A stretch of DNA of 64,000 nt. It comes from an uncultured bacterium (lineage in GTDB: Bacteria > Patescibacteriota > Minisyncoccia > UBA6257 > 2-01-FULL-56-20). A program made the translations under genes and the position numbers. How positions within the stretch are numbered: position 1 is the first letter of the stretch; every line of letters begins with the position of its first letter. Where the stretch lies: positions 454,715 through 518,714 of the forward strand of contig CAVYIK010000003.1 in the NCBI GenBank assembly GCA_963768625.1. Direction: 5' to 3'. Under the pieces are notes generated by a model. It ran no database searches. It saw only the letters and a list, made by a program, of their open reading frames with translations, and was not told where the DNA came from. Of this stretch, positions 38,563-64,000 are shown piece by piece.

Positions 38563-38655
38563 GTCAGGAAACGGCGTTGCCGAAGGAGGGGTTCGTCATG
38601 GAAAATTCAGTCTAGCATGCCTCTTTTTGATCTGTCAAACGCCGCACGGTTTCCC

Positions 38656-40301: not shown

Positions 40302-40355
40302 GGGAAATAGTTCTCAAAAAGAAAGCTTGGGTCCATGCCCGCCCGCGCAAGCACG

Positions 40356-41849: not shown

Positions 41850-41862
41850 GGAGGGCACGATT

Positions 41863-43089: not shown

Positions 43090-43093
43090 CCAA

Positions 43094-43138
43094 GAGGGCG
43101 TTGCGCAGTTTGTTTGTTTGCGCAACGCCTCTTTTTTA
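43094..43138 (+). terminator. Rho-independent terminator after the Nudix-kinase gene
   Basis: Stem gagggcgttgcgca / tgcgcaacgcctc (one bulge) followed by TTTTTT. Confidence 0.65.
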
Positions 43139-43150
43139 TATTCGCCCAAG

Positions 43151-44686: not shown

Positions 44687-44795
44687 AGCTCCATTGTAGC
44701 CCAGGCAGGGTTGACGCACCAATCTTTTCGAGTTAATCTTAGAGTAATTAAAGAGTCATTAATAAAAATGAAGACATCGGGAATTAACTATCATT

Positions 44796-49357: not shown

Positions 49358-50254
49358 ATGGTCACTGTTTTTTTGCGCGGCGGACTGGGCAACCAGATGT
49401 TCCAATACGCGGCCGGCCTGTCCCTCGCGAAGAAGAACAGGGCAGAGCTCGTCCTCGACACCGTCCATCTCCGCGACCGTTTCCCGCGGCCCCGGTTTTC
49501 CTACCGCGCCTACGACCTCGGCGTGTTCGCGATCGAGCCGCAGTTCACGGCGCTCTCGCGCCTCGCGGATAAGTTTCCCGTTCCCGGCGCCTGGCTTGGC
49601 CTCGACCTTTTGGGCATCGCTTTCGGGCACGCGTTTGGGGCGAAAAAGGTGATCCGCGAAAAGAGCAGCGCATTCGATCCGTCCGTGCTCGCCGCGCGTG
49701 GGAAAGTCCTTTTATATGGCAGGTGGCAGAGCGAAAAATATTTTGCGGACGTAAAAGACGATGTCCGCGCCGCATTCCGGTTCCGCCAGCCGCTCGCGGG
49801 CGATGCGAAAGCGCTCGCGGGGAAGATCGCGGGTTGCAATTCCGTTTCGCTCCATGTGCGCCGCGGCGATTACGCCGCCTTCAAGAACGTGGAGCAATTG
49901 ATGGGCAAGACCGACCTCGCTTACTACAACCGCGCGGCGAACTATATCGCCGGGCGTGCGAAAGACCCGCAGTTCTTCGTCTTTTCGGACGACATCGCAT
50001 GGTGTCGCGCGAATCTCAAGCTTCCGTTCCCGGCAACCTACGTGGACGATGCTTCGCGCGGCCCGAAAGCCGCGTTCCACCTCGAACTTATGTCGCGGTG
50101 CAAGCACAATATAATTACGAACAGCACCTTTTCCTGGTGGGGCGCATGGCTGAATGCGAATCCGGGAAAGATGGTCATCACGCCCGCGCATTGGTATGCC
50201 GATAAGACGAAGATCAACGAGGATATCATTCCCGCCGGTTGGGTGAAAATCTGA
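49358..50254 (+). CDS. Glycosyltransferase family 11 (alpha-1,2-fucosyltransferase-like)
   Basis: GGLGNQMFQYAAG, SLHVRRGDY and NSTFSWWGAWLN motifs. The start is taken at MVTVFL within ORF 49286. Confidence 0.8.
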   Translation: MVTVFLRGGLGNQMFQYAAGLSLAKKNRAELVLDTVHLRDRFPRPRFSYRAYDLGVFAIEPQFTALSRLADKFPVPGAWLGLDLLGIAFGHAFGAKKVIREKSSAFDPSVLAARGKVLLYGRWQSEKYFADVKDDVRAAFRFRQPLAGDAKALAGKIAGCNSVSLHVRRGDYAAFKNVEQLMGKTDLAYYNRAANYIAGRAKDPQFFVFSDDIAWCRANLKLPFPATYVDDASRGPKAAFHLELMSRCKHNIITNSTFSWWGAWLNANPGKMVITPAHWYADKTKINEDIIPAGWVKI

Positions 50255-50290: not shown

Positions 50291-50862
50291 TTGATAGCGA
50301 TGATAAAAGAATACCTTGCTGAATCGCAGGCGCTTGCGGGGGTGCTCGCTAAAGATGCTACGCTTCCGCAACGATTCGAAAAAACCGTGGACACGGTTGT
50401 TACTGCGTTCAAGACGGGCCATAAGGTGCTTGCGGCAGGGAATGGCGGGAGCGCCGCGGACGCCCAGCACTTTTCCGCAGAGTTTGTGGGGAAGTATAAG
50501 ATGGTTCGCGATGCGTATCCCGCGATCGCGCTTACGACAGATGTTTCCGTCCTCACCGCGTGGGCAAACGATGTCGCGTTCGAAGGTATTTTTGAGCGCC
50601 AGATAGAGGGGCTTGGGAAGAAGGGAGATGTGTTTTTTGGGATTTCAACAAGCGGCAATTCAAAGAATGTCATAGCGGCTCTCGCAAAGGCGAAGAGCAT
50701 GGGGCTCACGACCGTTGCCATGCTTGGTGGTGATGGCGGGCAGACAAAGGGGATGGCCGACATCGAATTTATCATCCCTTCAAAAAACACCCCCGAATCC
50801 AGGAGATGCACAAGCTTTTTCTCCACAGCATTGCCGAGGAGGCCGAGAAGCGAATGTCATGA
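50291..50862 (+). CDS. gmhA: SIS-domain sedoheptulose-7-phosphate isomerase (GmhA-like), one 3' frameshift
   Basis: [18 protein letters not shown] and [12 protein letters not shown]. The C-terminal [15 protein letters not shown] appears only after a shift at the C5 run 50790-50794. Its stop overlaps the gmd ATG. Confidence 0.75.
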
Positions 50863-51890
50863 ACACAACGAATAAAAAAGCCCTTATCACCGGCGTCACT
50901 GGCCAGGATGGGAGCTATCTCGCGGAGCTTTTGCTTAAAAAAGGATACGAAGTGCACGGGATCATCCGGCGCTCTTCATCGTTGAATACCGCCCGTCTCG
51001 ATCATATTTACGTTGACCCTCGCGAGAGAGGAGCGCGGCTCTATACCCATTATGGCGATCTCGCCGATGCGAATACGATCCGGAAGTTGATCTACGCGAT
51101 CAAGCCGGACGAGATCTATAATCTTGGGGCGCAATCCCACGTACGCGTTTCGTTCGACATCCCGGAATATACCGGTAATATAACTGGCCTTGGGACCCTT
51201 CGCATCCTTGAGGCCATAAAGGATTACGAGGCGGATACCGGTAATAAGGTAAGGTTTTATCAGGCCTCGAGCTCCGAAATGTTCGGCGCTGCGCCGCCGC
51301 CGCAGAATGAAGAGACAAAATTCTATCCGCGGAGTCCCTATGGCACGGCAAAAGTATTTGCATTTGATACGACGCGTAACTATCGCGAGGCCTACGGTAT
51401 TTTTGCGGCGAACGGCATACTTTTCAACCACGAATCGGAGCGCCGCGGCCATAATTTCGTTACGCGGAAAGTTACGACTGGTATCGCGCGGATCCTCGCG
51501 GGATTGGACAAAAAGCTCTATCTTGGCAATTTGAGCGCGCACCGCGATTGGGGCTACGCTCCCGAATACGTTGAAGCGATCTGGCTGATGCTTCAGCAGC
51601 CGGAACCAGAGGACTATGTGATTGGCAGCGGAGTGTCGCACAGCGTGGAAGATTTTGTCTCCACCGCTTTTAAGCAGGTAGGCATCACCGATTGGAAAAA
51701 GTATGTTGAGATAGATTCGCGCTATTACCGCCCTACGGAGGTGGAACGTCTCGTGGCTGATGCTACGAAGGCAAAGAGGAAATTGCATTGGGAGCCGAAG
51801 ACCGGATTCGAAGCATTAGTAAAAAAGATGCTCAAGCATGATCTTGAAAATCACGGCCTCCGTGACTACGCGGAGAAAATAATATTATAA
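50859..51890 (+). CDS. gmd: GDP-mannose 4,6-dehydratase
   Basis: [52 protein letters not shown] and FNHESERRG. Confidence 0.9.
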
Positions 51891-51893
51891 GAC

Positions 51894-53168
51894 ATGAGCC
51901 AGGATCTTATTGCACTTAGAGAAACCTGCCGGGTCTGCGGCGGGAAAAACCTTGACCCAATTCTTTCGCTCGGGAACCTCTATGTCTCCGATTTTTTGGG
52001 CGAGAGCGAAGGCGACCGCTCTTTTAAGGCACCGCTTGACGTCGTATTTTGCAATGCCGAGAAAGGCGGATGTGGATTATTGCAGCTTCAGCATACTGTT
52101 TCCCATGAAGCGATGTACCGGAATTATTGGTATCGCTCGGGCGTGAATAAAACAATGACCGATGCGCTGCACGGCATCGCGCGCACCGTCGAATCTCTTG
52201 CCGGACTGCACACCGGCGATTACGTGATCGATATCGGCGCCAATGATGGGACGCTGCTCCGCGGCTACGGGGTGAGCGATCTCAATCGGATCGGTTTTGA
52301 GCCTGCGAGGAATCTTGCGCAGTACAACAAAGCAGGGACGACCGAGATCATCAATGATTTCTTCAATTATGGAGCATGGGCTAAAAAATTTCCCGGAAAG
52401 AAAGCTAAAGCGATAACCGCTATCGCCATGTTCTACGACCTTGAAGATCCGAACCTTTTCGTTTCGGAAGTGGGGCGGTGCCTGGACGATGACGGAGTGT
52501 TCATCATTCAAATGAGCTATCTCCCGCTCATGCTTTCCACGAACGAGCTGGGGAATATTTGCCATGAACACATTGAATATTACTCCCTCTTTTCGCTTGA
52601 GAACCTCCTCGGGCGAAATGGGCTTGAGGTTTTTGACGTTGAGCTGAATGATGTGAACGGCGGCAGTTTCCGCACTTATATCCGGCACAAGGGGAAAGGG
52701 GGACGCCTTTCTGCCCCTATCGGGGCTGATATACGCGTTGAAGCCTTGAGAGAATACGAAAAGAAGCTCGGCCTCGCCAGTAAGAAAGTGTACGAAGATT
52801 TCGTGCGCCGCGTAGAGGGCATAAAGAAAGAGCTGACTGCTTTTTTGGAAAAAGAGACCGCGCGCGGGAAAAAGATCCATGTCTATGGAGCATCAACGAA
52901 AGGCAACACGGTCCTCCAGTATTTCGGTATTGATCATTCGATGATCGGAGCCGCCGCCGAGCGGAATCCGGACAAGTGGGGGAAAAAGACCGTCGGCACG
53001 CTTATCCCCATCATCTCGGAGGAACAGGCGCGAAATGAAAAACCGGATTATTTCCTCGTGCTGCCGTGGCATTTTTTGAGGGAATTCCGGGCTCGCGAGC
53101 AAGAGTTTTTCAAGCGTGGAGGTAAGTTCATCGTGCCGTTCCCCGAGCTCAAGATCATTGAACGCTAA
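51894..53168 (+). CDS. NDP-hexose C-methyltransferase (TylCIII-like), copy 1
   Basis: N-terminal Zn-ribbon CRVCGGKNL, SAM fold VIDIGANDGTLL, and a C-methyltransferase C-terminal domain (HVYGASTKGNTVLQYFG). Confidence 0.7.
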   Translation: MSQDLIALRETCRVCGGKNLDPILSLGNLYVSDFLGESEGDRSFKAPLDVVFCNAEKGGCGLLQLQHTVSHEAMYRNYWYRSGVNKTMTDALHGIARTVESLAGLHTGDYVIDIGANDGTLLRGYGVSDLNRIGFEPARNLAQYNKAGTTEIINDFFNYGAWAKKFPGKKAKAITAIAMFYDLEDPNLFVSEVGRCLDDDGVFIIQMSYLPLMLSTNELGNICHEHIEYYSLFSLENLLGRNGLEVFDVELNDVNGGSFRTYIRHKGKGGRLSAPIGADIRVEALREYEKKLGLASKKVYEDFVRRVEGIKKELTAFLEKETARGKKIHVYGASTKGNTVLQYFGIDHSMIGAAAERNPDKWGKKTVGTLIPIISEEQARNEKPDYFLVLPWHFLREFRAREQEFFKRGGKFIVPFPELKIIER

Positions 53169-54238
53169 TGAGCGATACTCAAGTTATCGTCGTGGGTGCC
53201 GATTGGCACGGCGAGTGGGCCAAGGACGTTTATCTCGCTTTCCGTGAGTCCGGCGCGGATGCGGAGATAATTTATACGAATACGCTCTTCGGGGGGATGG
53301 GCAGCAGCAAGGTCGCCGCGAAGGCGCGCGTGGAGATTATCAAGCAATTTTTCAGGAAACGCATGCCTTCCCTTTTTGATTTCGTAAGAGAGGCGCGGCG
53401 GCGGATGTCGGAGCGGACGGTGCTCAAAAAGATCGCATCGTTCCACAAACCGGGGCGCAAGCTGCTGGTTCTTTTTATCTGGACGCCGCCCGGCGTCTCG
53501 CTTCTTAAGGCCCTCGGGGCGAACAAGGAGATAGCGCTTGTGCTCTGGCAGGGTGAAGCGCCTTCGCGCAATGCCCAGTGGCCCCTTTCCTTCCCTTATT
53601 TCCACCATGTTTTTTCCGTGGATGAAGAGTGGCTCCCGCTTTTCGATGAGGAAACGAGGAAAAAGGCGACCTACTTGCCCCTCTCTTCGAGTTCAGCGAC
53701 GCACTTCCCGCTTTCCAGGGAGGCGCAGGATCAGAAATTTGTTTCCGATATCGCCTTCGTCGGGCATTATCGGCCCGAGCGCGCGGAAAAACTGTCAGCC
53801 CTCAAAGATAACGATCTTAAAATTTATGGCTATTGGTGGGAGGCCGGGGCGAGCCAGTTTCCCTGGCTTAAGGAGAAATATTGCGGACCCGTATCGGATA
53901 AAGATGCAAACCAGGTGTTCAATGGAGGAAAGATCCAGATCGGCCGCCTATCAACGCCTGTCGCGTACGGCAATACTATCACCCAGCGGGTTTTCGACGC
54001 CGCCCTTGCCGGGAGTTTCCAATTGAGCGAGTACTCGCCAGCCATTGAAAAGATATTCGGCAAGTCGGTCGTTATGTTCCGCGACGGCAAGGAACTTAAA
54101 AAACTTGCGGATTATTACCTTCTTCATGCCGAAGAGCGGCAGCGGCTCGCTGCTCAAGCGCACGCTATCGCCCTCAAGGACCATACTTACGCGAGCCGCA
54201 CAAAAACAATCATGAAGGTTTCTCACGCAATGCGATGA
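53168..54238 (+). CDS. CgeB-like glycosyltransferase (DUF3880 + Glyco_trans_1_2), copy 1
   Basis: IAFVGHYRPERAEKL...TQRVFDAALAGSFQLSEY...LLHAEERQRLAAQAHAIALKDHTYASR. Confidence 0.55.
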   Translation: MSDTQVIVVGADWHGEWAKDVYLAFRESGADAEIIYTNTLFGGMGSSKVAAKARVEIIKQFFRKRMPSLFDFVREARRRMSERTVLKKIASFHKPGRKLLVLFIWTPPGVSLLKALGANKEIALVLWQGEAPSRNAQWPLSFPYFHHVFSVDEEWLPLFDEETRKKATYLPLSSSSATHFPLSREAQDQKFVSDIAFVGHYRPERAEKLSALKDNDLKIYGYWWEAGASQFPWLKEKYCGPVSDKDANQVFNGGKIQIGRLSTPVAYGNTITQRVFDAALAGSFQLSEYSPAIEKIFGKSVVMFRDGKELKKLADYYLLHAEERQRLAAQAHAIALKDHTYASRTKTIMKVSHAMR

Positions 54239-55329
54239 AGATATTGCTCATAACTAATAAATACGTATACAATCCGCGGACGCTCTCGGTGCTCCGGCGG
54301 GCCGACGGCATCTATTCAATGGAAGATTCGCTTCGGGAAACGCTCGGCGCGCGCGGGCACTCGATGGACGTTTTTTATATTGACGAAGCCGTGAGTTCGC
54401 ACGGACTCGATGCCGCGCGTAAAGAATTATGGGACCACATTTGCAAGACGGTGCCCGATGTGTGCATCCCGATCGCGGTCGACGAATATATCTACGGCAA
54501 AGAACTTTTTCGGAAGATGCGCGACCAGAATTTTACCCAGTTCGTCTACCTCGGCGAAGATGATGCGTGGACGTGGGCGCGGCAGGGGCGCCATCTCGGA
54601 AAATATTTTCAGTGGATCGTAACGTACGACGGGAGAGCGGTTGCGAAATATAAAAGCATGGGTTGCCGTAATGTTGCACATCACCAGCCCGGCATTGATA
54701 TAAGCATTTTCAGAAAGCTTCAAGGAAGGCCGAAAAACATCGATGTGAGTTTTATAGGGCTTTGGAGCAAGCCGCGGGAAAAGGTTATCCAGTACCTTCG
54801 GGCGGCGGGCGTGGACGTGTTCGTGAGAGGAAGGGGATGGCCGGAAGGGCCCATTGAGAGCGACGAAGGAATGGTCGACATCATTAACCGGAGCAAGATA
54901 TGCCTTTCTCTCAATACGCCGGCGTTCTATTTCGGCTGGCGGCCGATCGCGAGCTTGTTCTTCCGCCGCGCGAGCTTGGGCGAAGGAGGTTTCCGCGTCA
55001 AGCTTGATATCTGGAACTTTTTCGGCAATCTGCGCCTGTGGCTCGACAAAAGAAATGCGCAGGTAAAGTCGCGACACTTTGACGTGCCTGCTTGCGGGAC
55101 CATGGAAATGACTAAAGACGCCGACGATCTTAGGGATTATTACAAACTCGGAGAAGAGATCGTCGTTTACAAAGATAACAAGGACCTCGTGGAGAAGATA
55201 AAGTATTATCTCGCGCATCCCGAAGAGCGGGAGGCGATAGCGAAGCGTGGCTACGAGCGCACGATACGCGAGCACTCGAAGAAGAAAAGATACGAGGATA
55301 TCTTTCGAATGATCGGGAAACCGCTGTAG
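54235..55329 (+). CDS. CgeB-like glycosyltransferase (Glyco_trans_1_2), copy 2
   Basis: DVSFIGLW...SRHFDVPACGTMEMT...YLAHPEEREAIAKRGYERTIREHS. Overlaps the upstream gene by 4 nt. Confidence 0.55.
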   Translation: MKILLITNKYVYNPRTLSVLRRADGIYSMEDSLRETLGARGHSMDVFYIDEAVSSHGLDAARKELWDHICKTVPDVCIPIAVDEYIYGKELFRKMRDQNFTQFVYLGEDDAWTWARQGRHLGKYFQWIVTYDGRAVAKYKSMGCRNVAHHQPGIDISIFRKLQGRPKNIDVSFIGLWSKPREKVIQYLRAAGVDVFVRGRGWPEGPIESDEGMVDIINRSKICLSLNTPAFYFGWRPIASLFFRRASLGEGGFRVKLDIWNFFGNLRLWLDKRNAQVKSRHFDVPACGTMEMTKDADDLRDYYKLGEEIVVYKDNKDLVEKIKYYLAHPEEREAIAKRGYERTIREHSKKKRYEDIFRMIGKPL

Positions 55330-55379
55330 GCACAAGGCAAATAGTTGCAATTACCCTTTTCCAAAGGTATTCTTGGTAT

Positions 55380-56642
55380 GTGCAAAATAACCGTCCCCGG
55401 AACCTCGTCTGTGATCCAGCCCAGCTGATCAAGCGGTGCCGCGTATGCGATTCGAAGAACTTGGAGATGGCCATCGATCTTGGCTTCCAGCCGTGGTGCA
55501 ATCATTTTTTAAAAAAAGAGGAGATCGGCACGGAGCCGTTCTATCCTTTACGCGTCGTTTTCTGCATGGATTGTCGGACGCCGCAGCTTGATTATACGGT
55601 TCCGAAGGAGACCATGTTCGGCCACCACACCTACCTGTCCGGCGTTACGAAAACGTTGAGCGACCATTTTAAATCCGTAGCCGAGAAGGTTAACGAAAAG
55701 TTTTTCAAAAATGCGCCAAAGAAATCGGTGCTTGATATTGGCTCGAATGACGGTACGCAGCTGAAATACTTCAAACAGCTTGGGTATGATGTGTTGGGGA
55801 TTGACCCAGCGGAGACGCCCGCACGGCTTGCGAATGAAGCAGGCATACCGACGGTCCACGATTTCTTCAATCTGGATTCTGCGAAAAAGCTAGGCCGGAA
55901 ATTCGACGTGATCAATGCCGCGGGCGTATTCTTTCACCTCGAAGAATTGCATTCCGTCTGCGATGCCATAAAACAGGTCCTCGCGGATGACGGTGTTTTC
56001 GTCGTCCAATTTTTGTACATGAAGAGCATCGTGGAAAATATGGCGTTTGACCAGATCTACCACGAGCATTTGCTGTACTACAATCTTAAAAACATCGAGA
56101 CGCTTTTGAACCGGCACGGACTTTCTTTATTTGACGCGTATCTCGCGCCCATCCACGGCGGCTCTATGATCGCCTACGCCACCCACAAGGGGCGAAAGAG
56201 CCCCTCGCCCGAACTCGTCGCGTTCAGGGATGAAGAAGCGGAGCATGGAATCAACGAGCTCCCGACCTATCTGCGGTTCGCCGAAAATATAAAAAAGAGG
56301 AAGGAGGAGGTCTTGGCATACCTTCAGGATGCCAAAAAGCGGGGGAAAAGGATTTTCGGCATGGGAGCGCCGGTCAAGGGGAACACCATGCTGAATTATT
56401 TCGGGGTCGGAACCGACCATATAGAATGTTTGGTTGAGAAAAACGAATTACGCCGCGGTCTTTACGCGCCCGGGTCGCACATCCCGATCGCGATCGAAAA
56501 GGAGCTTACCGAGCTGCCGGACATTTATTACTTCCTTGCATGGAATTTCAAAAAAGAGATCTTAGCGAACAATCAATTCCTGATCGACAAAGGCGTAGAA
56601 TTCTATTTTCCCGTTGACCCGGATAAAAAGTCTGGTAGTTGA
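55380..56642 (+). CDS. NDP-hexose C-methyltransferase (TylCIII-like), copy 2
   Basis: Zn-ribbon CRVCDSKNL, SAM fold VLDIGSNDGTQL, and a C-terminal domain with IFGMGAPVKGNTMLNYFG. Paralogue of 51894-53168. Confidence 0.7.
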   Translation: MQNNRPRNLVCDPAQLIKRCRVCDSKNLEMAIDLGFQPWCNHFLKKEEIGTEPFYPLRVVFCMDCRTPQLDYTVPKETMFGHHTYLSGVTKTLSDHFKSVAEKVNEKFFKNAPKKSVLDIGSNDGTQLKYFKQLGYDVLGIDPAETPARLANEAGIPTVHDFFNLDSAKKLGRKFDVINAAGVFFHLEELHSVCDAIKQVLADDGVFVVQFLYMKSIVENMAFDQIYHEHLLYYNLKNIETLLNRHGLSLFDAYLAPIHGGSMIAYATHKGRKSPSPELVAFRDEEAEHGINELPTYLRFAENIKKRKEEVLAYLQDAKKRGKRIFGMGAPVKGNTMLNYFGVGTDHIECLVEKNELRRGLYAPGSHIPIAIEKELTELPDIYYFLAWNFKKEILANNQFLIDKGVEFYFPVDPDKKSGS

Positions 56643-56717
56643 GCTACGACTCGTACGGTGATGGACAAAGATTGGGATTTTTTATACCATAACCATGAAA
56701 GATTACACGGGTGACGT

Positions 56718-57614
56718 ATGAAAATAATCGTAACCGGCTCGGAAAGTTTTGTCGCGCGGGAGCTTATTGCGCAATGCCTTAAAGAAGGAATTGAGGTTTT
56801 CGGGTTCGATTTCGCGAAGAACAGCGATTTGCCCTACGAATTCCAAAAAGGCGATATCAACGATCCGAAGATCGGCGATCTTTTCCCGGAGGGGGCGGAC
56901 GCGCTTGTGCACCTTGCTGCTCTCTCGCGCGATAAAGACTGCGCCGGCAGGGCGTATGAGTGTTTTTCGACGAACGTGCTGGGGACGCTGAATCTCGTGC
57001 GCGCGGCTAAAACTCGCGGCGTGAAGCAGTTCATTTTTTCTTCAAGCGACTGGGTGTACGAGAAATTCGCACCCGGCGAGGTGAAAGACGAGACCTCGCT
57101 TATTGACATCGCGGGGCACACTTCCGAGTACGCGCTCTCAAAGCTTGTGAGTGAAGCGAATTTGCGTCAGGAGTACTTGCGGGGGCAGTCCATGGGGATT
57201 ACCGTCCTTCGTTTCGCCATCATCTACGGGCCGCGCCCGCTCACGGTGGCGGGTTCCGTCGAGAGGATCATGAGCGAAGCGAAGACAAGCGAGGCCATAA
57301 CGTTTTCCGGGTCGCGCAAATCGGGACGTTGTTATATGCACGTGCATGATATCGCGCGCGGCATCCGTGCGGCGCTAGGAAGAAAGGATTTTCAGATCGT
57401 GAATCTTGCCGGCGACGAATTTGTCACGCTTGAAGATATCGTCCGCATAACCGAGAAGCTGTGCGGCAAGACAAAGCCGGCCGAGATCATCGAGAAGGAT
57501 CCTGCGGCTGTTGTTGCGAGGAATATATCGAACAAAAAAGCCAAAGAGATGCTTCACTGGAAGCCAGAGATCAATATAGAAGCCGGCTTCAAAACGATCC
57601 TGCCCTTTATCTAA
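56718..57614 (+). CDS. NAD-dependent sugar epimerase/dehydratase (SDR)
   Basis: Rossmann motif IIVTGSESFVAREL and the catalytic YALSK triad region. Confidence 0.65.
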   Translation: MKIIVTGSESFVARELIAQCLKEGIEVFGFDFAKNSDLPYEFQKGDINDPKIGDLFPEGADALVHLAALSRDKDCAGRAYECFSTNVLGTLNLVRAAKTRGVKQFIFSSSDWVYEKFAPGEVKDETSLIDIAGHTSEYALSKLVSEANLRQEYLRGQSMGITVLRFAIIYGPRPLTVAGSVERIMSEAKTSEAITFSGSRKSGRCYMHVHDIARGIRAALGRKDFQIVNLAGDEFVTLEDIVRITEKLCGKTKPAEIIEKDPAAVVARNISNKKAKEMLHWKPEINIEAGFKTILPFI

Positions 57615-58547
57615 ATGCCAACCGGCTCTGATACGAAGAAAAAAATTGCCGGGGAAGTGATCCGCCTGCGCGTGAGCCAGATGATCGTGAATGAAGAATA
57701 CAAGGCGGGGAAATTTAAGGTTCCGATCCATCTCGCCTTGGGGCACGAAGCTATTGCCGTTGCCGTAAGCGAGATGATGGAGCAAGGAGACAGCCTGCTC
57801 CCGACGCACCGCAACATCGCCTACAATCTCGCCCGCGCCGGCAGGTTGCGGCCCATTCTTGACGAATATCTTTTGAAGTCGACGGGCTTGAACGGGGCGC
57901 GCTCCGGGTCTATGAACCTCTTGAACCCGGAGAGGGGGATCCTTTACGCTTCAAGCATCCTCGGAAACCAGTTTTCCGTGGCGACGGGGATCGCGATGGC
58001 AGATAAAATATCGGGGAAAAAGAATATCGTGATCGTCATGGGAGGAGATGGTTCGATGGAGGAAGGTTCGTTCTATGAAAGCATGCTTATGGCGCGGAGC
58101 CTTGAATTGCCGGTGCTTTTCGTTGTGGAAAATAACGAGTGGTCCATGGCGACCCGCATTGGTGAACGTCGTTCGCCCATCGACCTTTCACTTTTCGCCG
58201 AATCCCTGAATATCCGCTATGCCCATCTTCACGACAATGACGTCTACCGCTATATCGATACGCTAAAAGACATACGGAAAGCCGCCATCAAGAATAACGC
58301 CCCGATGTGTATTGAGGTGCGCGTCTCGACGTTGGGGGATTGGCGCATGAAGACGGAGGGGTTTCCGGAGGGAGAATTCATTAACTATCACGCCGGTCCT
58401 GCGCCCGAGGTGTCGCTTACCGAATGGCCGATCATCCGTGAGAACGACGAAGATCCCGTGTTTGCGCTGACGCGCCACATTGAGCAGTCGGTGCTTGAGG
58501 AAGACGCACGCAGGCAATTTGCGGAACTTCAAAAAGAGATCTCGTAG
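57615..58547 (+). CDS. Thiamine-diphosphate-dependent dehydrogenase E1 alpha-like subunit
   Basis: HLALGHEAIAVA...THRN and the TPP-binding motif GGDGSMEEGSFYESMLMARSLELPVLFVVENNEW. Confidence 0.75.
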   Translation: MPTGSDTKKKIAGEVIRLRVSQMIVNEEYKAGKFKVPIHLALGHEAIAVAVSEMMEQGDSLLPTHRNIAYNLARAGRLRPILDEYLLKSTGLNGARSGSMNLLNPERGILYASSILGNQFSVATGIAMADKISGKKNIVIVMGGDGSMEEGSFYESMLMARSLELPVLFVVENNEWSMATRIGERRSPIDLSLFAESLNIRYAHLHDNDVYRYIDTLKDIRKAAIKNNAPMCIEVRVSTLGDWRMKTEGFPEGEFINYHAGPAPEVSLTEWPIIRENDEDPVFALTRHIEQSVLEEDARRQFAELQKEIS

Positions 58548-58553
58548 AAAAAT

Positions 58554-59492
58554 ATGCCTAAATATCTTGAACACATAAATTCGGTTTTGAAAAAAGAGGT
58601 CGGCGCGCACGACGGGCTTGTTGTGTTCGGCCAGAACGTGAGCGCGGGTTCGCGCATCAGCGGGTTCACGAAGGGCTTTAAGGTAAAAGCGTCAGGGAAA
58701 ATAATAAATACGACGAATACGGAAAACTCGCTTGTCGGTTTTGGATTTGGCGTGATGCTCGCCGGCGGCACGTCAGCGTTCTTTATGAAGCAACTCGACT
58801 TTCTTTTCCTCGGCATAGACCAATTGGTGAATACGTATAATATTCTCCGCAATTCTCGTGAGGCCAAGGGTTCATTCACGATCCTGCCGCTTGTTGTCGA
58901 CATGGGCTATCAAGGCCCGCAATCGAGCGCAAACAATTTCGGCGACTTTTGCTCGATCGCGCGCATCCCGGGCTATGCCGTGACGAATAAGTATGATGCC
59001 GAACAGATCGTAGGGAGTCACCTCGTTTCTCCGGGATTCCGCATTATTGCTTTCAGCCAGCGGATGTTCAAGGACGAGGTCATCGATCCGGGTGTGCCCG
59101 TGCACGCCGATAGAGGTCTGAAGTTCGCGCAGTACAAAGACGGTCCCGATGCGACGATTGTTTCGTTCAATTTTTCTTTCCCGTACGCATGGAAGCTCGG
59201 CCTTGAGCTCGAAAAAGCAGGAAAGAGACCCGCGGTATTCAATGTGAACTATATGACGCCGATCGATTGGGCGCCGATTTTGGAAAGCGTAAAGAAAACA
59301 AAAAGGCTTGTCGTTCTGGACGACAGCAAGAGCGAAAATCTATCATGCTTCTCGCTTCTTGCCGAAGCGCGTGCCCTGGGCCTTAAGAAAGATATTTTTA
59401 TCAAGCGCACGCTGAATGATAATTGGCTCAACCCTGTTTCCGACGCGATGGATATCGATTACGAAGCGATCATGCGGGGGTTGGGTATCTAA
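58554..59492 (+). CDS. E1 beta-like subunit (transketolase pyrimidine-binding + C-terminal domains)
   Basis: VFGQNVSAGSRISGFTKGF, TENSLVGFGFGVMLAGG, and a C-terminal VVLDDSKSEN segment. Confidence 0.7.
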   Translation: MPKYLEHINSVLKKEVGAHDGLVVFGQNVSAGSRISGFTKGFKVKASGKIINTTNTENSLVGFGFGVMLAGGTSAFFMKQLDFLFLGIDQLVNTYNILRNSREAKGSFTILPLVVDMGYQGPQSSANNFGDFCSIARIPGYAVTNKYDAEQIVGSHLVSPGFRIIAFSQRMFKDEVIDPGVPVHADRGLKFAQYKDGPDATIVSFNFSFPYAWKLGLELEKAGKRPAVFNVNYMTPIDWAPILESVKKTKRLVVLDDSKSENLSCFSLLAEARALGLKKDIFIKRTLNDNWLNPVSDAMDIDYEAIMRGLGI

Positions 59493-59514
59493 CTTCGACA
59501 TCTCTAGAGAAACA

Positions 59515-60318
59515 ATGGGTGAAAAGAAAAAGAATCTCATTCTCGGGAAAGGCCTTATCGGGTCCCACTTGGCCGCCGTCCTCAAGGAACGGAAGGAAGA
59601 AGTTTCGGTGCTCTCCCGTGGCGACGGTCAGGATCTAAAAAGCGCCGAAAAATATTTTGACCGGTTCCAGTGGGCGGACCGGGTGTGGTTTGTGGCATGG
59701 GACGTGGGCGTCTGGAAAAAATCCACCTCGTCCGCCTACGAAAGCGAAGTTTTGGATTCCAATCTTGCGCTGTGCCGGTCTGTATTCAAGTGTCTGGAGC
59801 GGTCCGGGAAACCATTTCTTTTTGTGAGCTCGCAAGCCGCGCTCGCGCCGGATATGGTCACGCTGGGCGTTACGAAGCGGGTCGGCGAATTTTGGACGCG
59901 AATTTTGGGAGGGCATATCGCGCGGCTCTGGAACGTGTATGGCTGGGAGTTGCCCGGAGAGAAAAGCCATCTTATCCCCGACCTGGTCCACCAGGGTCTC
60001 CGGGGGAAAATTCAACTGATGACGAACGGCGAGGAAACGAGGCAGTTTTTGTATGCCCGGGATTGCGCGGAGGCTTTCGTGCACCAATTTGATATCGGCC
60101 AAAAGGAGGCGGATGTCACAAGCGGCGAATGGATTTCCGTAAAAGAGATGGCCCGACGCATCGGCCAGAAATTGAGGGCAGAAGTCGTGTTCGGGTCAAA
60201 ACCCGGCAGGCCTCCTTTCTGGATCCCAAAAACTCCGCTCGCATCATGGAAGCCGAGGTTCTCTCTGGATGAAGGGTTGGATGAGGTCATAAGAGATGCA
60301 AAGTCGAGCATTGTGTGA
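59515..60318 (+). CDS. Short NAD(P)-binding SDR (sugar reductase/epimerase-like)
   Basis: The start is taken at MGEKKKNLILGKGLIGSHL within ORF 59416. Rossmann fold. Contains ETRQFLYARDCAEAF. Confidence 0.55.
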   Translation: MGEKKKNLILGKGLIGSHLAAVLKERKEEVSVLSRGDGQDLKSAEKYFDRFQWADRVWFVAWDVGVWKKSTSSAYESEVLDSNLALCRSVFKCLERSGKPFLFVSSQAALAPDMVTLGVTKRVGEFWTRILGGHIARLWNVYGWELPGEKSHLIPDLVHQGLRGKIQLMTNGEETRQFLYARDCAEAFVHQFDIGQKEADVTSGEWISVKEMARRIGQKLRAEVVFGSKPGRPPFWIPKTPLASWKPRFSLDEGLDEVIRDAKSSIV

Positions 60319-60331
60319 TATCCTTGGCACT

Positions 60332-60844
60332 ATGAAAATCACGGAGACAAAATTGGAGGGAGTCCTTCTCATAGAACCCGAGGTTTTCAAGGACTTCCGC
60401 GGCTCGTTCACCGAGATCTATAACGAAGATGCATATGCGAAGGCGGGGATCGCGGACCGCTTCGTTCAGGACGACATGTCACTTTCAAAAAAGAATGTCC
60501 TGCGCGGCATTCATGTCGAGAATAAGATCGCGAAGTTGGTCATGTGCGGTCACGGTCGCCTGTATTGCGTTGTCGTAAACTGCGACAAGGCATCTAAAAA
60601 GTTTGGAGCGTGGGAATCGTTCATTTTGACCGATGAAAATCGTCACCAACTTTTTATTCCTCCGAAGCATGGCACCGCATACCTCGTACTGTCCGACTGG
60701 GGAATGTTCCACTATAAACAATCGGGATATTACAATCCGGCCAATCAGGATAGTTATCGCTGGAACGATCCAAAATTCAATATTTCGTGGCCGATAGAAA
60801 ATCCGATTCTTTCCGCGCGAGACGAGGCGGGGAAGTATGTTTAG
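60332..60844 (+). CDS. RmlC-like cupin sugar-nucleotide 3,5-epimerase
   Basis: LEGVLLIEPEVFKDFRGSFTEIYN...LRGIH...FIPPKHGTAYLVLSD...YKQS.YY are the dTDP-4-dehydrorhamnose 3,5-epimerase family motifs. Confidence 0.75.
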   Translation: MKITETKLEGVLLIEPEVFKDFRGSFTEIYNEDAYAKAGIADRFVQDDMSLSKKNVLRGIHVENKIAKLVMCGHGRLYCVVVNCDKASKKFGAWESFILTDENRHQLFIPPKHGTAYLVLSDWGMFHYKQSGYYNPANQDSYRWNDPKFNISWPIENPILSARDEAGKYV

Positions 60845-60896
60845 GGCGAGAAACACTTGTTAAAATGCCCGGAGGGGGATATGATAGCAAGCATTG

Positions 60897-61859
60897 ATGG
60901 CGAAACAGAATAATATCTCAAAAAAGATTTTGGTGACGGGCGGCGCCGGCTATATCGGATCGGTCTTGGTGCCCGAACTCCTGCGCGCCGGGCACGAAGT
61001 GACCGTCGTGGATAATTTTATGTACGGCCAGCATTCGTTGCTTGACGTGGCCAACATGAAGACACTCACCGTGGTCCGTGGCGATGCGCGCGATGAAGCG
61101 CTTATAAAAAAGCATATCGCCGGGAAAGACTTCATTATTCCTTTGGCATGCATCGTCGGAGCTCCGGCGTGCGATCGCGATCCGGCGAAGGCCCGCAGCA
61201 CGAACCTAGGAGCAGTCGAACTCATCCTTAAGCTCCGCACGCCGGACCAGAAGATCATTTTCCCAAATACGAACAGCGGCTATGGCCGGATGGCGGCCGG
61301 GGTCGCATTTTGCGATGAAAATAGCCCGCTTGAGCCCATTTCCCTTTACGGCAAGCTTAAGGTCCAGGCAGAAAAGGAGCTTTTGGAGGCGGGGAACGCG
61401 ATCACGCTGCGCCTCGCGACGGTGTTCGGCGCAAGCCCCCGGATGCGCATAGACCTCCTTGTGAATGATTTCGTCTATCGCGCCGTGACCGACCGATCGA
61501 ATCTTATCTTTGAAGGTCATTTCAAACGGAATTATATCCATGTGCGCGATGTCGCCCGCGCTTTCATGCACGCAATGGACCACTTTGAGACAATGAAAGA
61601 CCAGGCATACAACGTCGGCCTTTCCAGCGCGAACTTGAGCAAGCTTGAGCTTTGTGAAGAGATCAAAAAGCAGCTCCCACAGTTCGTTTTCGTGGAGTCC
61701 GAGATCGGCAAGGACCCTGACCAGCGCAACTATATCGTTTCCAATGCAAAGATAGAGGCGACCGGGTATAAGCCGATCGTCTCGCTCGCAGACGGCATCG
61801 CCGAGCTCATCAAGGCGTATCAGATCGTTCGGCGGGACCACTTTACGAATTTAGTATAG
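60897..61859 (+). CDS. NAD-dependent sugar epimerase/dehydratase (SDR)
   Basis: ILVTGGAGYIGSVLV, YGKLK catalytic motif, and NYIHVRDVARAF. ATG 60897 is preferred over TTG 60894. Confidence 0.7.
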   Translation: MAKQNNISKKILVTGGAGYIGSVLVPELLRAGHEVTVVDNFMYGQHSLLDVANMKTLTVVRGDARDEALIKKHIAGKDFIIPLACIVGAPACDRDPAKARSTNLGAVELILKLRTPDQKIIFPNTNSGYGRMAAGVAFCDENSPLEPISLYGKLKVQAEKELLEAGNAITLRLATVFGASPRMRIDLLVNDFVYRAVTDRSNLIFEGHFKRNYIHVRDVARAFMHAMDHFETMKDQAYNVGLSSANLSKLELCEEIKKQLPQFVFVESEIGKDPDQRNYIVSNAKIEATGYKPIVSLADGIAELIKAYQIVRRDHFTNLV

Positions 61860-61884
61860 CCATTGGCCGTTTTCGGGCGGCATC

Positions 61885-61913
61885 TTGCCATCCTGTTGAA
61901 ATAGTGGTAGAAT
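61885..61913 (+). promoter_or_regulatory. Sigma70-type promoter TTGCCA-17-TAGAAT with TGg extension
   Basis: cTTGCCAtcctgttgaaatagTGgTAGAATc. Lies about 48 nt upstream of the RBS-preceded ATG 61961. Confidence 0.5.
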
Positions 61914-61960
61914 CTCCGCAGCAGTAGCATTACAGAATCTTGTTCTGGGAGGAATTCCGA

Positions 61961-62689
61961 ATGTTCATTGATGAATTGGCCTGCCTGTTACGGGAGGAGT
62001 ACGTCTATCCGAACGTCAAGCTTGGCCACGATTTTTTTCACGTGGAAAGAATGGTCTCGCGTGGTCCGGAGATTTACGACGCCTTTCCATTGTTCGACCT
62101 CAACGAATTTGCCGTAGCGGTGTGGCTGCACAACGTGGACCGCTGCCGTACTTTAGGGGCCCGGATCGTCCAGAGCGGGGGACTCCGACAGTATCTCGAT
62201 GGCCTTTTAGGGGATGACTTTCCCCGCGAGGCCAAGGAGAGGATCATCATCGCCGACATCGACCACCCGAAGAAATATGATGAGCCCGGAGACATCCCAT
62301 TGCTCACCGCGGTCCGCGTGGCAGACAAGCTGGATCGTTTCAACCCGACGCTGTTGGTGGAAGCCCCCGCTTCATGGGCGCATCTCCCCATCTTTGATCC
62401 GGAAGATCCATTCGGCTATGACGACACCGAGCCGGGCGAGCACGGCCAATCCGGCGGGGGGCACAAAAGCATCTACGAGACCTACTATCGCGTGCTTGGG
62501 TGGGTCCCGATGATGCCTGAATGGGCCCGTAAGCTCATTCCGCGCGAACATCTGCGGCTCTTCATCACTTTCCTTCGATTGCTTGGAGCCCAGGCAGCGA
62601 AGCAATTCCAGACGGATAATCTCGTCGAGAACGATATCCGCCGAGCCCTGGGCCCGTGCTATATGTGGGCGAATCGGTATATCGGTTAA
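61961..62689 (+). CDS. HD-domain-like hypothetical protein
   Basis: RBS GGGAGGAattccgaATG. H...HD-type residues (GHDFFHVERM, WLHNVDR, DIDHPKK, RVADKLDRF). Confidence 0.4.
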   Translation: MFIDELACLLREEYVYPNVKLGHDFFHVERMVSRGPEIYDAFPLFDLNEFAVAVWLHNVDRCRTLGARIVQSGGLRQYLDGLLGDDFPREAKERIIIADIDHPKKYDEPGDIPLLTAVRVADKLDRFNPTLLVEAPASWAHLPIFDPEDPFGYDDTEPGEHGQSGGGHKSIYETYYRVLGWVPMMPEWARKLIPREHLRLFITFLRLLGAQAAKQFQTDNLVENDIRRALGPCYMWANRYIG

Positions 62690-62714
62690 TTCTCGCGGGT
62701 TGGTTTTCTTCCAG

Positions 62715-62746
62715 CGCGCCGGTTGAGAAATCGGCGCGTTTTTTTT
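62715..62746 (+). terminator. Rho-independent terminator
   Basis: Stem cgcgccg/cggcgcg followed by TTTTTTTT. Confidence 0.7.
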
Positions 62747-62783
62747 ATTGCCACCAATTGAATTGTGTCCTATTATTCTCCTT

Positions 62784-63740
62784 ATGAGCGCTTATAAGCG
62801 TATTCTCGTTACGGGCGGCAGCGCTGTTGCGGGCGACGGCTTAAAAAGCGTGGTCGCGAAAGGGGAATATCCCGGCCGTGAATTTATTTTCCCGACATCC
62901 AAAGAATGTAATTTACTGGATGCCGAAGCGACGAAAAAATTCGTCGCCGATTGGAAGCCGGACGCCATCATCCATTTTGCTGCCATCTCCGGCGGCATCC
63001 AGCTTACCATTGATCATCCGGCGAGCGTCTTGCGGGACAATGTTGTGCTCAATTTCAATGTTATTGAAGCTGCGCGGCTTGCGGGCGTCAAGAAGCTCTT
63101 AATGACGCTTTCCGCCGCCATGTATCCGCTTGAAGCTCCGGTGCCGATGAAAGAAGAGTGGATCCATAAAGGGTATCCCCACGAGACAAACTATAGTTAC
63201 GCATTTGCGAAGCGACTTATGGATCCGATGGCGCGGGCTTACAAAAAAGAGTTCGGCATGAATGTCGTCGGTATCATTCCTGGGGGGATCATCGGGCCGC
63301 GTAACAACTTTGATCCAAAATTTTCAACCGCGATTCCGGGGATGATCAAGCGATTCTACGAAGATCGCGAGGGGAATGATCCGCTCATCATCTGGGGAGA
63401 TGGCACGCCGGTTCGGCAGTTCACCTCGGCTGAAGACATCGGCCGCATCGCGATGTGGTTCATCGATAATTACAATGATCCGCAGCCCCTCAATATCAGT
63501 ACCATGGAGGAGACATCCATCAAGGACGCTGCATATATGGTTGCGGAATTCCTCAAACTTGATCCAAAGCGCATAGCGTTTGACACCTCGAAACCTTCCG
63601 GGACGCCGCGCCAATCAATCGACAGTTCGAAATTCATAGCGCTCTCCGGATTTAAATATGCGCCGAGCCGGGAAGCGATAAAACAAACGGTGGAATATTT
63701 TGCGGCGAACTACCCCGACGCTAAAAAACTCCGTCTTTAA
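62784..63740 (+). CDS. fcl: GDP-L-fucose synthase-like (GDP-4-keto-6-deoxymannose 3,5-epimerase/4-reductase family)
   Basis: ILVTGGSA..G, ECNLLDAEATKKF, IHFAA.SGGI, YSYAFAKR, GPRNNFDP and IIWGDGTPVRQF parallel the E. coli Fcl layout. The start is taken at MSAYKR. Confidence 0.65.
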   Translation: MSAYKRILVTGGSAVAGDGLKSVVAKGEYPGREFIFPTSKECNLLDAEATKKFVADWKPDAIIHFAAISGGIQLTIDHPASVLRDNVVLNFNVIEAARLAGVKKLLMTLSAAMYPLEAPVPMKEEWIHKGYPHETNYSYAFAKRLMDPMARAYKKEFGMNVVGIIPGGIIGPRNNFDPKFSTAIPGMIKRFYEDREGNDPLIIWGDGTPVRQFTSAEDIGRIAMWFIDNYNDPQPLNISTMEETSIKDAAYMVAEFLKLDPKRIAFDTSKPSGTPRQSIDSSKFIALSGFKYAPSREAIKQTVEYFAANYPDAKKLRL

Positions 63741-63741: not shown

Positions 63742-64000
63742 ATGAAATACCGCGCTATCGGGAAAACCGGCATCAAAGTTTCGGAGATCGGCTTCGGCGC
63801 GTGGGGGATCGGCGGCGAAACTTTTGATGGAGCGCATTCCTACGGCGCGACCGATGACAATGAATCAAAGCGGGCGCTCCAAAGGGCTTTTGAGCTCGGC
63901 ATCACTTTTTACGACACCTCGGATATCTATGGATATGGACACAGTGAAGATCTGTTGGGAGAGGTATTCGGAAAGCGGAGGGACAAAGTGGTCATCGCAG
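63742..64000 (+). CDS. Aldo/keto reductase (partial, runs off the window)
   Basis: MKYRAIGKTGIKVSEIGFGAWGIGG...ALQRAFELGITFYDTSDIYGYGHSEDLLG is the AKR N-terminal signature. Confidence 0.75.
   Translation, partial: MKYRAIGKTGIKVSEIGFGAWGIGGETFDGAHSYGATDDNESKRALQRAFELGITFYDTSDIYGYGHSEDLLGEVFGKRRDKVVIA

Follow-up and report, generated by a model that had tools for sequence, protein, structure and literature searches.

A surface-glycan island with an E1 alpha/beta pair

We analysed a 64-kb stretch of DNA from an uncultured bacterium (contig CAVYIK010000003.1, positions 454,715 to 518,714; hereafter the window), and concentrated on a cluster of nucleotide-sugar genes that includes a divergent E1 alpha/beta pair of the thiamine diphosphate (ThDP) enzymes. 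A first-pass annotation had described 14 co-directional genes between 50291 and 63740. An open reading frame (ORF) check retrieved 14 + strand ORFs between these positions, all at or near the coordinates first assigned to them, and Pfam, NCBIfam and PDB sequence searches agree on their families. The limits of the cluster have to be revised: the co-directional + strand island comprises at least 19 genes and extends from 46292 to past 64000, where the window ends. Upstream, this adds a Wzy_C protein, an unknown protein, a GDP-mannose 3,5-epimerase (GME) and a glycosyltransferase of family GT11; downstream, it adds an aldo-keto reductase (AKR) gene that starts at 63742 and leaves the window. The island starts after the housekeeping gene for RNase Y (44796-46262), and its GC content is 0.52-0.53, versus 0.54-0.59 in the flanks.

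The closest named relatives of the arginyl-tRNA synthetase (ArgRS) encoded in the window are from Minisyncoccia and Candidatus Paceibacterota (70-71% identity), in agreement with the early suggestion of an organism like those of the candidate phyla radiation (CPR). The nearest genomes with the E1 alpha gene are Paceibacteria and Liptonbacteria. The idea of a GDP-sugar tailoring cluster for a surface glycan is also supported. We regard the locus as the surface-glycan island of a Patescibacteria (Paceibacteria/Minisyncoccia-like) genome, rich in genes, yet typical for glycan islands.

Gene calls in two other contigs were used to place the starts: L001, a short contig identical to the window, and L086, a relative with 88-93% identical DNA. 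They give realistic starts at 50300, 50859, 59515, 60332, 60897, 61961 and 62784. The overlap of about 160 nt first drawn between the first two genes (50291-50875 and 50715-51890) is an artefact of mechanical ORF calling combined with a frameshift. We label the genes g1 (gmhA) to g14 (the fcl-like gene) in their order between 50291 and 63740; g07 is the short-chain dehydrogenase/reductase (SDR) before E1 alpha, and CMT stands for C-methyltransferase.

50300 to 50862, + strand: g1, gmhA (probable sedoheptulose-7-phosphate isomerase; SIS/GmhA-like); TIGR00441, 178.8 bits
50859 to 51890, + strand: g2, Gmd, a GDP-mannose 4,6-dehydratase; TIGR01472, 507.7 bits, cutoff 415
51894 to 53168, + strand: g3, C-methyltransferase 1 (CMT1), TylCIII/TcaB9 architecture; PF08421, PF13489 and PF08484
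53168 to 54238, + strand: glycosyltransferase-like protein a (PF13524, Glyco_trans_1_2, CgeB-like), 90 bits; also in L086
54235 to 55329, + strand: glycosyltransferase-like protein b (PF13524), 96.9 bits; also in L086
55380 to 56642, + strand: g6, C-methyltransferase 2 (CMT2); PF08421, PF13489 and PF08484; 260 bits to PDB 4rv9
56718 to 57614, + strand: g07, extended SDR; Pfam Epimerase/3Beta_HSD, PDB matches generic only
57615 to 58547, + strand: g8, divergent ThDP E1 alpha, 310 aa; PF00676, 117 bits; GDG...ENN TPP-binding motif
58554 to 59492, + strand: g9, E1 beta-like subunit, 312 aa; weak Transket_pyr/Transketolase_C matches
59515 to 60318, + strand: g10, degenerate SDR, 267 aa, first listed as the second SDR; LGVTK replaces YxxxK
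60332 to 60844, + strand: g11, RmlC-like NDP-4-keto-sugar 3,5- (or 3-) epimerase; TIGR01221, 161.5 bits, cutoff 155.75
60897 to 61859, + strand: g12, 6vo6-like SDR; 374.6 bits to PDB 6vo6 (E 3e-111, residues 8-318)
61961 to 62689, + strand: g13, HD-fold protein; AlphaFold (AF2) model with a predicted local distance difference test (pLDDT) score of 79.7, and Foldseek
62713 to 62740, + strand: terminator-like hairpin, strong, with a 12-bp stem and T-run, followed by a promoter-like site at 62748-62776; consensus match only
62784 to 63740, + strand: g14, epimerase/reductase similar to GDP-L-fucose synthase (GMER/Fcl); 211 bits to PDB 4e5y, human GFS
63742 to 64000, + strand: AKR, clipped by the window end; at least 301 aa in the identical contig L001

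The E1 alpha/beta pair and its neighbour g07

The E1 pair (g8/g9) is the most informative feature of the island because it points to two-carbon or acyl branching of a sugar. The first-pass annotation had rightly listed the pair, and left it without interpretation. E1 alpha scores 148.6 bits with TIGR03182, versus a cutoff of 393.85, and 62 bits to the human pyruvate dehydrogenase (PDH) E1a; E1 beta scores 46.8 bits with PRK09212, versus a cutoff of 321. Neither the window nor the annotated related loci L002-L004, L022, L085, L086, L088 and L089 showed an E2 or E3 gene. With scores below the cutoffs and no E2/E3 partners, g8/g9 are not classified by sequence as E1 subunits of a pyruvate or 2-oxo-acid dehydrogenase. 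The GDG and ENN columns of the ThDP motif are invariant in an alignment of 16 diverse E1 alpha homologues. As predicted proteins, g8 and g9 fit the layout of AviB1/AviB2, in which separate E1 alpha and beta subunits are encoded in a sugar-nucleotide cluster that has no E2/E3. The SDR encoded just upstream, g07, is a candidate for the ketoreductase of the branch (a YerF-like role) or for a generator of the keto sugar.

We also considered phosphonate decoration by a phosphonopyruvate decarboxylase, and rejected it: g8/g9 belong to the E1_dh family and not to the ComDE/Ppd type, and none of the ORFs scanned has a match to phosphoenolpyruvate (PEP) mutase.

Distribution and gene order of the cassette

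An E1 alpha profile search, with one genome per species, retrieved 80 loci, and the addition of L001-L004 brings the set to 84. Neighbours within 10 kb were counted over these 84 loci, and adjacency over the 61 loci in which E1 alpha is at least 35% identical. E1 beta is directly downstream of E1 alpha in 57 of the 61. A homologue of g07 is directly upstream in 28 and within 2.6 kb in 41. Among the 84 loci, the neighbours include an HddA-like kinase (52 loci), an RmlC-like gene (about 50), HddC/GmhB (45), a CmcI-type methyltransferase (38), a TylCIII-type C-methyltransferase (35) and GmhA (35). HddA, HddC and GmhB are here the best NCBIfam matches of the neighbours, all below the equivalog cutoffs. 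For example, the locus of Chloroflexi RBG_16_56_11 (L022) encodes, in order, an ABC ATPase, HddA, GmhA, an SDR, an HddC-GmhB fusion, a C-methyltransferase, RmlC, a further SDR, a CmcI methyltransferase, a g07-like SDR, a small methyltransferase, E1 alpha, E1 beta and a GT2 glycosyltransferase. HddA, HddC and GmhB were not found by tblastn in the 64-kb window; they are present just downstream in close relatives.

The carriers are diverse. They include Paceibacteria, Liptonbacteria, metagenome-assembled genomes labelled as Saccharibacteria, Giovannonibacteria, Nitrosotalea, Nitrosopumilus, other Thaumarchaeota and Methanosarcinales, as well as Omnitrophota, Nitrospirae, Chloroflexi, Planctomycetes, Lentisphaerae, Cytophagaceae and both Alpha- and Gammaproteobacteria; one cultured carrier is Jiella sp. 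LLJ827 (L057; NZ_JAKQZG010000004.1:349268-370155). Pelagibacteraceae (SAR11) and Prochlorococcus carry homologues of lower identity (32-37%). The island had been seen as a heavy biosynthetic investment for a CPR organism, a view that does not hold: the core cassette is common in CPR and in other phyla, and CPR genomes encode many surface-modification genes (PMC12911398).

These patterns bear on whether the E1 pair has anything to do with sugars. It could be a remnant, or an ordinary 2-oxo-acid or acetoin dehydrogenase E1, that lies in the island by chance; its family-level matches are indeed PDH E1 alpha and beta, and the loci of lowest identity (L072-L082, at most 33%) have E1 alpha and beta genes without sugar neighbours. 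The latter are probably ordinary E1s. We give this explanation very little credence. The scores are far under the PDH cutoffs, E2 and E3 are missing nearby, and the close homologues (at least 35% identical) lie within sugar-nucleotide clusters, in some 60 genomes from many unrelated phyla. The E1 alpha relatives on plasmids of cultured bacteria were discarded as generic E1 matches, at most 32% identical; the sole context examined, on a Streptomyces plasmid (H15), is catabolic and not a sugar cluster. No E1 alpha relatives were found on viral contigs.

Some relatives carry additional ThDP genes. L089, from the sample that also yielded L086, has a g13 that is 87% identical to the window's; L088 is a 66% relative; L002/L003 represent the Liptonbacteria version of the cluster. 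A mini-E1 pair, itself followed by an HddA-like kinase, comes directly after the AKR gene at 2852-4022 in L089 and at 12812-13969 in L088, and the window stops just short of this position. Mini-E1 alpha (about 205 aa) consists of the ThDP-binding core only, and mini-E1 beta (about 185 aa) of the Pyr domain with no Transketolase_C. The mini-E1 pair is a distant paralogue of the large one (29% identity). In relatives of 87-93% identity the island goes on past the AKR gene: L089 encodes mini-E1 alpha (206 aa), mini-E1 beta (193 aa), an HddA-like kinase, two GT2s and a malic enzyme. In L088 there are also GmhB, an HddC-like nucleotidyltransferase and a flippase of the Wzx type. Aldo_ket_red genes are also found in the related clusters L002, L004, L088 and L089. 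A split transketolase (N- and C-terminal subunits) lies alongside E1 alpha/beta in L002/L003 (4655-6361), giving this glycan cluster two ThDP systems. Malic enzyme genes also lie within the clusters of close relatives (L085, 9270-10445; L089, 6864-8006) and may supply pyruvate locally to the ThDP enzyme.

GDP-sugar enzymes and C-methyltransferases

Five enzymes of the island are best matched by GDP-sugar enzymes: Gmd, GME, the GDP-fucose synthase-like and 6vo6-like proteins, and the RmlC-like protein through its matches to GDP-heptose epimerases. Gmd scores 448 bits to PDB 1n7g versus 114 to the Campylobacter GDP-heptose 4,6-dehydratase 7us5. The RmlC-like g11 scores 126 bits to RmlC and about 105 to the Campylobacter GDP-4-keto-heptose epimerases. 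The best PDB matches of g14 are GDP-fucose synthases, the closest being of the eukaryote type, and its NF047922 score of 188.7 bits is below the cutoff of 500 for bacterial Fcl; g14 is a relative of GDP-L-fucose synthase and a candidate for that specificity. The terminator-like hairpin and promoter-like site ahead of it may mark the boundary of a transcription unit.

The SDR g12, first listed simply as a third SDR, is rightly called so and can be named more specifically, as a close homologue of PDB 6vo6. We take this structure to be that of Campylobacter Cj1427. Cj1427 is a GDP-heptose C4-dehydrogenase with a tightly bound NADH that is recycled by alpha-ketoglutarate (PMC10680097). If g12 is of the Cj1427 type, it would make a 4-keto sugar in which the 6-OH is kept, and would provide a second entry that is independent of Gmd.

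The doubt whether the two methyltransferases might belong to non-sugar families can be dismissed. CMT1 and CMT2 each have all three domains (the N-terminal Zn-binding PF08421, the S-adenosylmethionine methyltransferase domain and the C-terminal PF08484) and align end to end with PDB 4rv9 and TcaB9, so that both are classed here as sugar C-methyltransferases. They are only 34% identical to each other. CMT1, with 207 bits to the D-mycarose 3-C-methyltransferase PDB 4rv9, adjoins gmd in the window and is linked with gmd in L027, where its sole close homologue (66%) is grouped in one block with gmd, a short SDR and an fcl-like gene. CMT2 is a paralogue that travels with the branching cassette: homologues at 69-71% identity adjoin the 6vo6-like SDR in L009 and L012, and homologues at 32-43% identity occur in 35 loci. 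L009 has two blocks, one with gmd, an fcl-like gene and a GT10 fucosyltransferase, and the other with RmlC, CMT2, the 6vo6-like SDR, another SDR, g07, E1 alpha, E1 beta, HddA and HddC.

Upstream genes and glycan assembly

The genes between RNase Y and gmhA are the following.

46292 to 47740, + strand: Wzy_C membrane protein (O-antigen ligase/polymerase/O-oligosaccharyltransferase family); PF04932, 66.6 bits
47715 to 48371, + strand: unknown protein, about 218 aa, with a single N-terminal transmembrane (TM) anchor, from TM prediction; 70% homologue at the same position in L086
48376 to 49356, + strand: GME homologue; 333 bits to Arabidopsis GME, PDB 2c59; Pfam Epimerase
49358 to 50254, + strand: GT11 glycosyltransferase (alpha-1,2-fucosyltransferase family); PF01531, 120.9 bits; start taken from the 89% homologue in L086

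The GME homologue matches PDB 2c59 over its full length, the next family reaching only about 100 bits, and is expected to make GDP-L-galactose or GDP-L-gulose. GT11 likely uses GDP-L-fucose or GDP-L-galactose. A hydropathy scan predicts about 13 TM segments in the Wzy_C protein, and the same gene is at the same position in L086. The unknown protein has no match to Pfam or other families. Protein a of the two PF13524 proteins is specific to the lineage, with almost no homologues across the 84 related loci.

Comparison with known systems

Only two routes for two-carbon branching of sugars have been described, the YerE/YerF type and the AviB1/B2-Pau11/12 type (PMC4425429, PMC4753412, PMC9306805). 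The general scheme for acyl-branched sugars involves a ThDP enzyme and an adjacent reductase (PMC9306805). AviB1/B2 and Pau11/12, pairs that resemble E1 alpha/beta, have been proposed to add a pyruvate-derived acetyl branch at C4, and the AKR Pau7 reduces the branch (PMC4425429, PMC4753412). The window resembles the systems of AviB1/AviB2 (avilamycin, methyleurekanate) and Pau11/Pau12 (paulomycin, paulomycose) of Streptomyces in that an E1 alpha/beta pair is encoded among sugar-nucleotide genes and E2/E3 are lacking; the AKR gene next to the cluster parallels Pau7. The Avi and Pau pairs concern TDP-activated deoxyhexoses of actinomycete antibiotics, possibly after glycosyl transfer, whereas here the surrounding genes are those of GDP-sugar or GDP-heptose surface glycans, in CPR, archaea and many phyla. 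Unlike in those clusters, the pair also has a dedicated adjacent SDR and C-methyltransferase.

We propose a likeness to YerE/YerF (yersiniose A) and to ErwE, MMAR_2332 and MyGE (erwiniose, caryophyllose, gastriose), where a ThDP carboligase acylates a nucleotide 4-keto sugar, the acyl group is reduced by a neighbouring NAD(P)H reductase, and the product enters a surface glycan (PMC9306805). The enzymes of the YerE group are single proteins, YerE being a ThDP flavoprotein that uses CDP-4-keto-3,6-dideoxyglucose, whereas the window encodes a two-subunit enzyme of the E1_dh family in a GDP context. The YerE group is acetolactate-synthase-like. The window pair, predicted to consist of E1_dh and transketolase-pyr family subunits, is not of this type and would be analogous to it in role only. 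The cassette can be described as an Avi/Pau-type enzyme in a YerE/YerF-type arrangement (a ThDP enzyme with a reductase-type SDR) and with an AKR nearby.

The donor and the site of attack are where an alternative has to be weighed. The pair could be a ThDP carboligase other than a simple acetyl-brancher at C4: it could extend a chain at an aldehyde (C6/C7), use a longer 2-oxo acid as donor or start a carbocycle, and the product would be a higher-carbon sugar. There is precedent in ErwE, MMAR_2332 and MyGE, which extend YerE-type chemistry to longer acyl donors and use long functionalised ones (PMC9306805). E1 alpha also matches the N-terminal models of 1-deoxy-D-xylulose 5-phosphate (DXP) synthase, the relatives hold extra ThDP systems (the split transketolase of L002, the mini-E1s of L088 and L089), and the E1 pair is strongly tied to heptose genes. 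We nevertheless find this alternative unlikely. No aldolase gene for longer 2-oxo acids was seen in the window or the annotated relatives, the malic enzyme of L085 and L089 speaks for pyruvate as the donor, and the conserved partners of the pair are a generator of 4-keto sugars and an epimerase and a methyltransferase that depend on them.

Other parts of the island resemble other pathways. The 6vo6-like g12, the RmlC-like and Fcl-like genes and the frameshifted gmhA recall the capsular heptose route of Campylobacter jejuni (GmhA, HddA, GmhB, HddC, Cj1427, the Cj1430 epimerase and the Cj1428 reductase), with the qualification that HddA, HddC and GmhB are found only in the relatives of the window, which itself lacks HddA and HddC. 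Unlike the window, the Campylobacter route has no C-methyltransferase or ThDP enzyme, and it yields heptose epimers or deoxyheptoses that carry no branch. The combination of Gmd, a C-methyltransferase and an epimerase/reductase had been linked early on to virenose, which is plausible: in the route proposed for Coxiella burnetii (Gmd, the TylCIII-like CBU_0691 and GMER), as here, gmd is accompanied by a TylCIII-type CMT, adjoining it in the window, and by a Fcl/GMER-like gene in the cluster (PMC3539893). The Coxiella route is an in silico proposal only, and its equivalent in the window would be one branch among several. Finally, the two CMTs share their three domains with the 3-C-methyltransferases TylC3, TcaB9 and MtmC, with 207 and 260 bits over the full length of MtmC (PDB 4rv9). 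The characterised members of this group use dTDP-sugars, and the likeness of the window CMTs to them is one of sequence.

As the first-pass annotation had suspected, we found no characterised pathway that maps one-to-one onto the gene set. In the literature we found no described pathway that joins entry from GDP-heptose or GDP-mannose, TylCIII-type C-methylation and E1-type ThDP branching. Nor did we find a link between caryophyllose and pyruvate dehydrogenase, or a pathway that combines a heptose, a C-methyltransferase and thiamine. Each enzyme type has a precedent; for the combination we found no characterised match. Discussion of an E1-type brancher has until now been confined to the antibiotics of actinomycetes.

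Proposed parallel GDP-sugar branches

We lean, with moderate confidence, towards an island made of several parallel GDP-sugar branches, one of them with E1-type branching, together with assembly proteins, instead of a single linear pathway. We favour several branches on the following grounds. GME, Gmd and the 6vo6-like enzyme each offer an alternative way in from GDP-mannose or GDP-heptose; L009 and L027 hold the pieces as separate blocks; the window has GME directly beside GT11, and gmd directly beside CMT1; and the terminator-like hairpin, a consensus-level feature, precedes the fcl-like gene. A set of parallel sugars that includes plain L-fucose and L-galactose fits better than one elaborate pathway.

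A single pathway would act on one GDP-4-keto sugar and lead to one monosaccharide that is doubly C-methylated and carries a two-carbon branch. Co-directional, tightly packed genes speak for it, as do two C-methyltransferases and many SDRs within one island. We consider it decidedly improbable. In relatives, the gmd/fcl/fucosyltransferase genes, gmd-CMT1 and the RmlC/CMT2/6vo6-like/g07/E1 genes form different blocks, and the alternative entry enzymes would not serve as consecutive steps. The island also encodes three glycosyltransferase (GT)-like proteins and is divided by the terminator-like site.

From the family and fold assignments, the ThDP motif, the lack of E2/E3, the gene order and the conservation of the cassette we infer the substrates, regiochemistry, step order and acceptor of the parallel branches as follows. 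In the first branch, GME would yield GDP-L-galactose, Gmd and the Fcl-like enzyme would yield GDP-L-fucose, and GT11 would transfer one or both. In the second, the product of Gmd would be converted by CMT1 and a 4-reductase or epimerase-reductase into a C-methyl-6-deoxyhexose of the virenose/evalose type. In the third, the 6vo6-like dehydrogenase would oxidise C4 of GDP-heptose where Hdd genes are present, and otherwise possibly of GDP-mannose; the RmlC-like enzyme would epimerise the 4-keto sugar, and CMT2 would C-methylate the epimerised product. E1 alpha/beta would then decarboxylate pyruvate, and the hydroxyethyl-ThDP carbanion would attack the sugar carbonyl to give a C-acetyl branch, which g07 and/or the AKR would reduce to 1-hydroxyethyl. 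The product would be a heptose or hexose, C-methylated and with an acetyl or hydroxyethyl branch. The gmhA gene here, HddA/HddC/GmhB in the relatives and the 6vo6-like SDR point to a heptose route in which the 6-OH is kept. The two PF13524 proteins, GT11 and Wzy_C would build the glycan on an acceptor. In an organism free of lipopolysaccharide (LPS) this acceptor is a matter of speculation, with a lipid carrier, an S-layer protein or a pilin as candidates.

Several points weigh against this scheme. The roles of AviB1/B2 and Pau11/12 are themselves genetic or proposed assignments, and the E1 pair is likened to them by gene layout and not by direct sequence comparison. The heptose substrate rests on the relatives, because the window is without HddA, HddC and GmhB and its gmhA is frameshifted. 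The identity of 6vo6 with Cj1427 is presumed. The roles of g07 and the AKR are inseparable, and in L088 and L089 the AKR adjoins the mini-E1 and not the large pair. The split into three branches comes from synteny in a handful of loci. Finally, g10 has no catalytic Tyr and g13 is unexplained.

More tentatively, and with less confidence than even odds would give, the triad SDR-E1 alpha-E1 beta, together with a CMT, an RmlC-like enzyme and GDP-heptose genes, may define an undescribed class of surface sugars. These would be C-methylated, acyl-branched or chain-extended heptoses of about ten carbons, made by a two-subunit E1-type carboligase that acts on a GDP-4-keto-heptose. The cassette would have spread horizontally among CPR, ammonia-oxidising archaea, SAR11, Prochlorococcus and other uncultivated lineages, and the lineage of the window would have stacked a mini-E1 and a second CMT on it.

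Frameshifted and unusual genes

The window copy of gmhA lacks one nucleotide of a C-run (about 50793-50797), and its true C-terminus lies in another frame. With the frame corrected, the stop of gmhA overlaps the start of gmd at 50859 as ATGA. In L086 GmhA is intact, with 187 aa; it reaches 199 bits with TIGR00441, versus 178.8 for the frameshifted copy and a cutoff of 209.45. Several housekeeping genes of the window are also broken. The CTP synthase gene (pyrG) has at least three reading-frame switches, RNase J is split into two overlapping ORFs, and ClpB, a beta-CASP protein and a Mur ligase are seen in the window only as fragments; these genes are at 3540-5400, 36462-38460 (- strand), 15610-16740, 9002-9784 and 6714-7358. 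This suggests indel errors of a long-read assembly (a single 588-kb contig) and not real pseudogenes. The gmhA frameshift is probably such an error as well, because essential genes (pyrG, RNase J) are broken far worse.

The second SDR, g10, has lost its catalytic Tyr, replaced by Leu, as well as some 20 residues ahead of this site. A 74% homologue (L085) keeps the two changes, and g10 is probably a non-redox or regulatory SDR. We tried to relate it to the short SDR beside CMT1 in L027 and detected no similarity.

No Pfam (HD included) or NCBIfam match was found for g13, and its family is rare, with 60 representatives among 1.84 billion proteins. Foldseek matches its model best to the HD hydrolases YpgQ, SE1688 and YedJ, and also to LpR71 (TM-scores 0.56-0.71, probability 1.0, E-values of 8e-3 or weaker). 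The family alignment has an invariant H57-N58, giving H..HN..D where H..HD..D is canonical. The early label of an HD-like protein is therefore borne out at the level of the modelled fold; the canonical HD metal-binding motif is absent, HN taking its place.

These oddities (the gmhA frameshift, the Tyr to Leu change in g10 and HN for HD in g13) could be taken as signs that the island is decaying or inactive in this genome. We find this scarcely credible. The worse state of essential genes suggests that the indels are assembly errors, the remaining 13 genes have their full length relative to the 88-93% identical L086, and the peculiarities of g10 and g13 are kept in homologues and so appear to be under selection.

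Other features of the window

Upstream of the island, the + strand ORFs at 43076-44545, 40335-40853 and 38504-39454 look spurious and were discarded; the real genes are on the - strand and include iPGM (43151-44722) and a solute-binding protein (38612-39940). The + strand ORF at 41755-43089 has a weak match to NUDIX and, at its C-terminus, a kinase domain of the AAA_33/chloramphenicol-phosphotransferase-like type. It adjoins a gene of the inositol-monophosphatase family (41046-41849), a family that also flanks the Liptonbacteria cluster L002. The isoleucyl-tRNA synthetase (IleRS; 32002-35466, + strand, 1154 aa) has a His_Phos_1 (histidine-phosphatase) domain at residues 488-656, between the matches to the tRNA-synt_1 catalytic domain and the anticodon-binding domain. 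A serine recombinase gene (21002-22600, - strand) and the tmRNA gene (20782-21088) overlap, the former at its end and the latter at its 3' end. Between about 20 and 26 kb the GC content falls to 0.45-0.49, and 26408-27427 encodes a Schlafen/AlbA_2 protein. The region 20782-27427 looks like a mobile element integrated at ssrA.

Implications

The interest of these results lies in the wide distribution of an uncharacterised cassette more than in this one genome. The known examples of acyl-branched sugars come from a small number of LPS O-antigens and antibiotics; YerE-type enzymes make those of surface glycans. If our reading is true, branched, C-methylated heptoses would be common on the surfaces of abundant, uncultivated microbes, among them CPR bacteria, Thaumarchaeota, SAR11 and Prochlorococcus. 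It would also mean that a two-subunit ThDP carboligase accepts nucleotide keto-sugars, which would be useful in biocatalysis, and the cassette would be a simple genomic marker to predict such sugars from sequence. The surface glycans of these organisms plausibly affect host attachment, phage adsorption and grazing.

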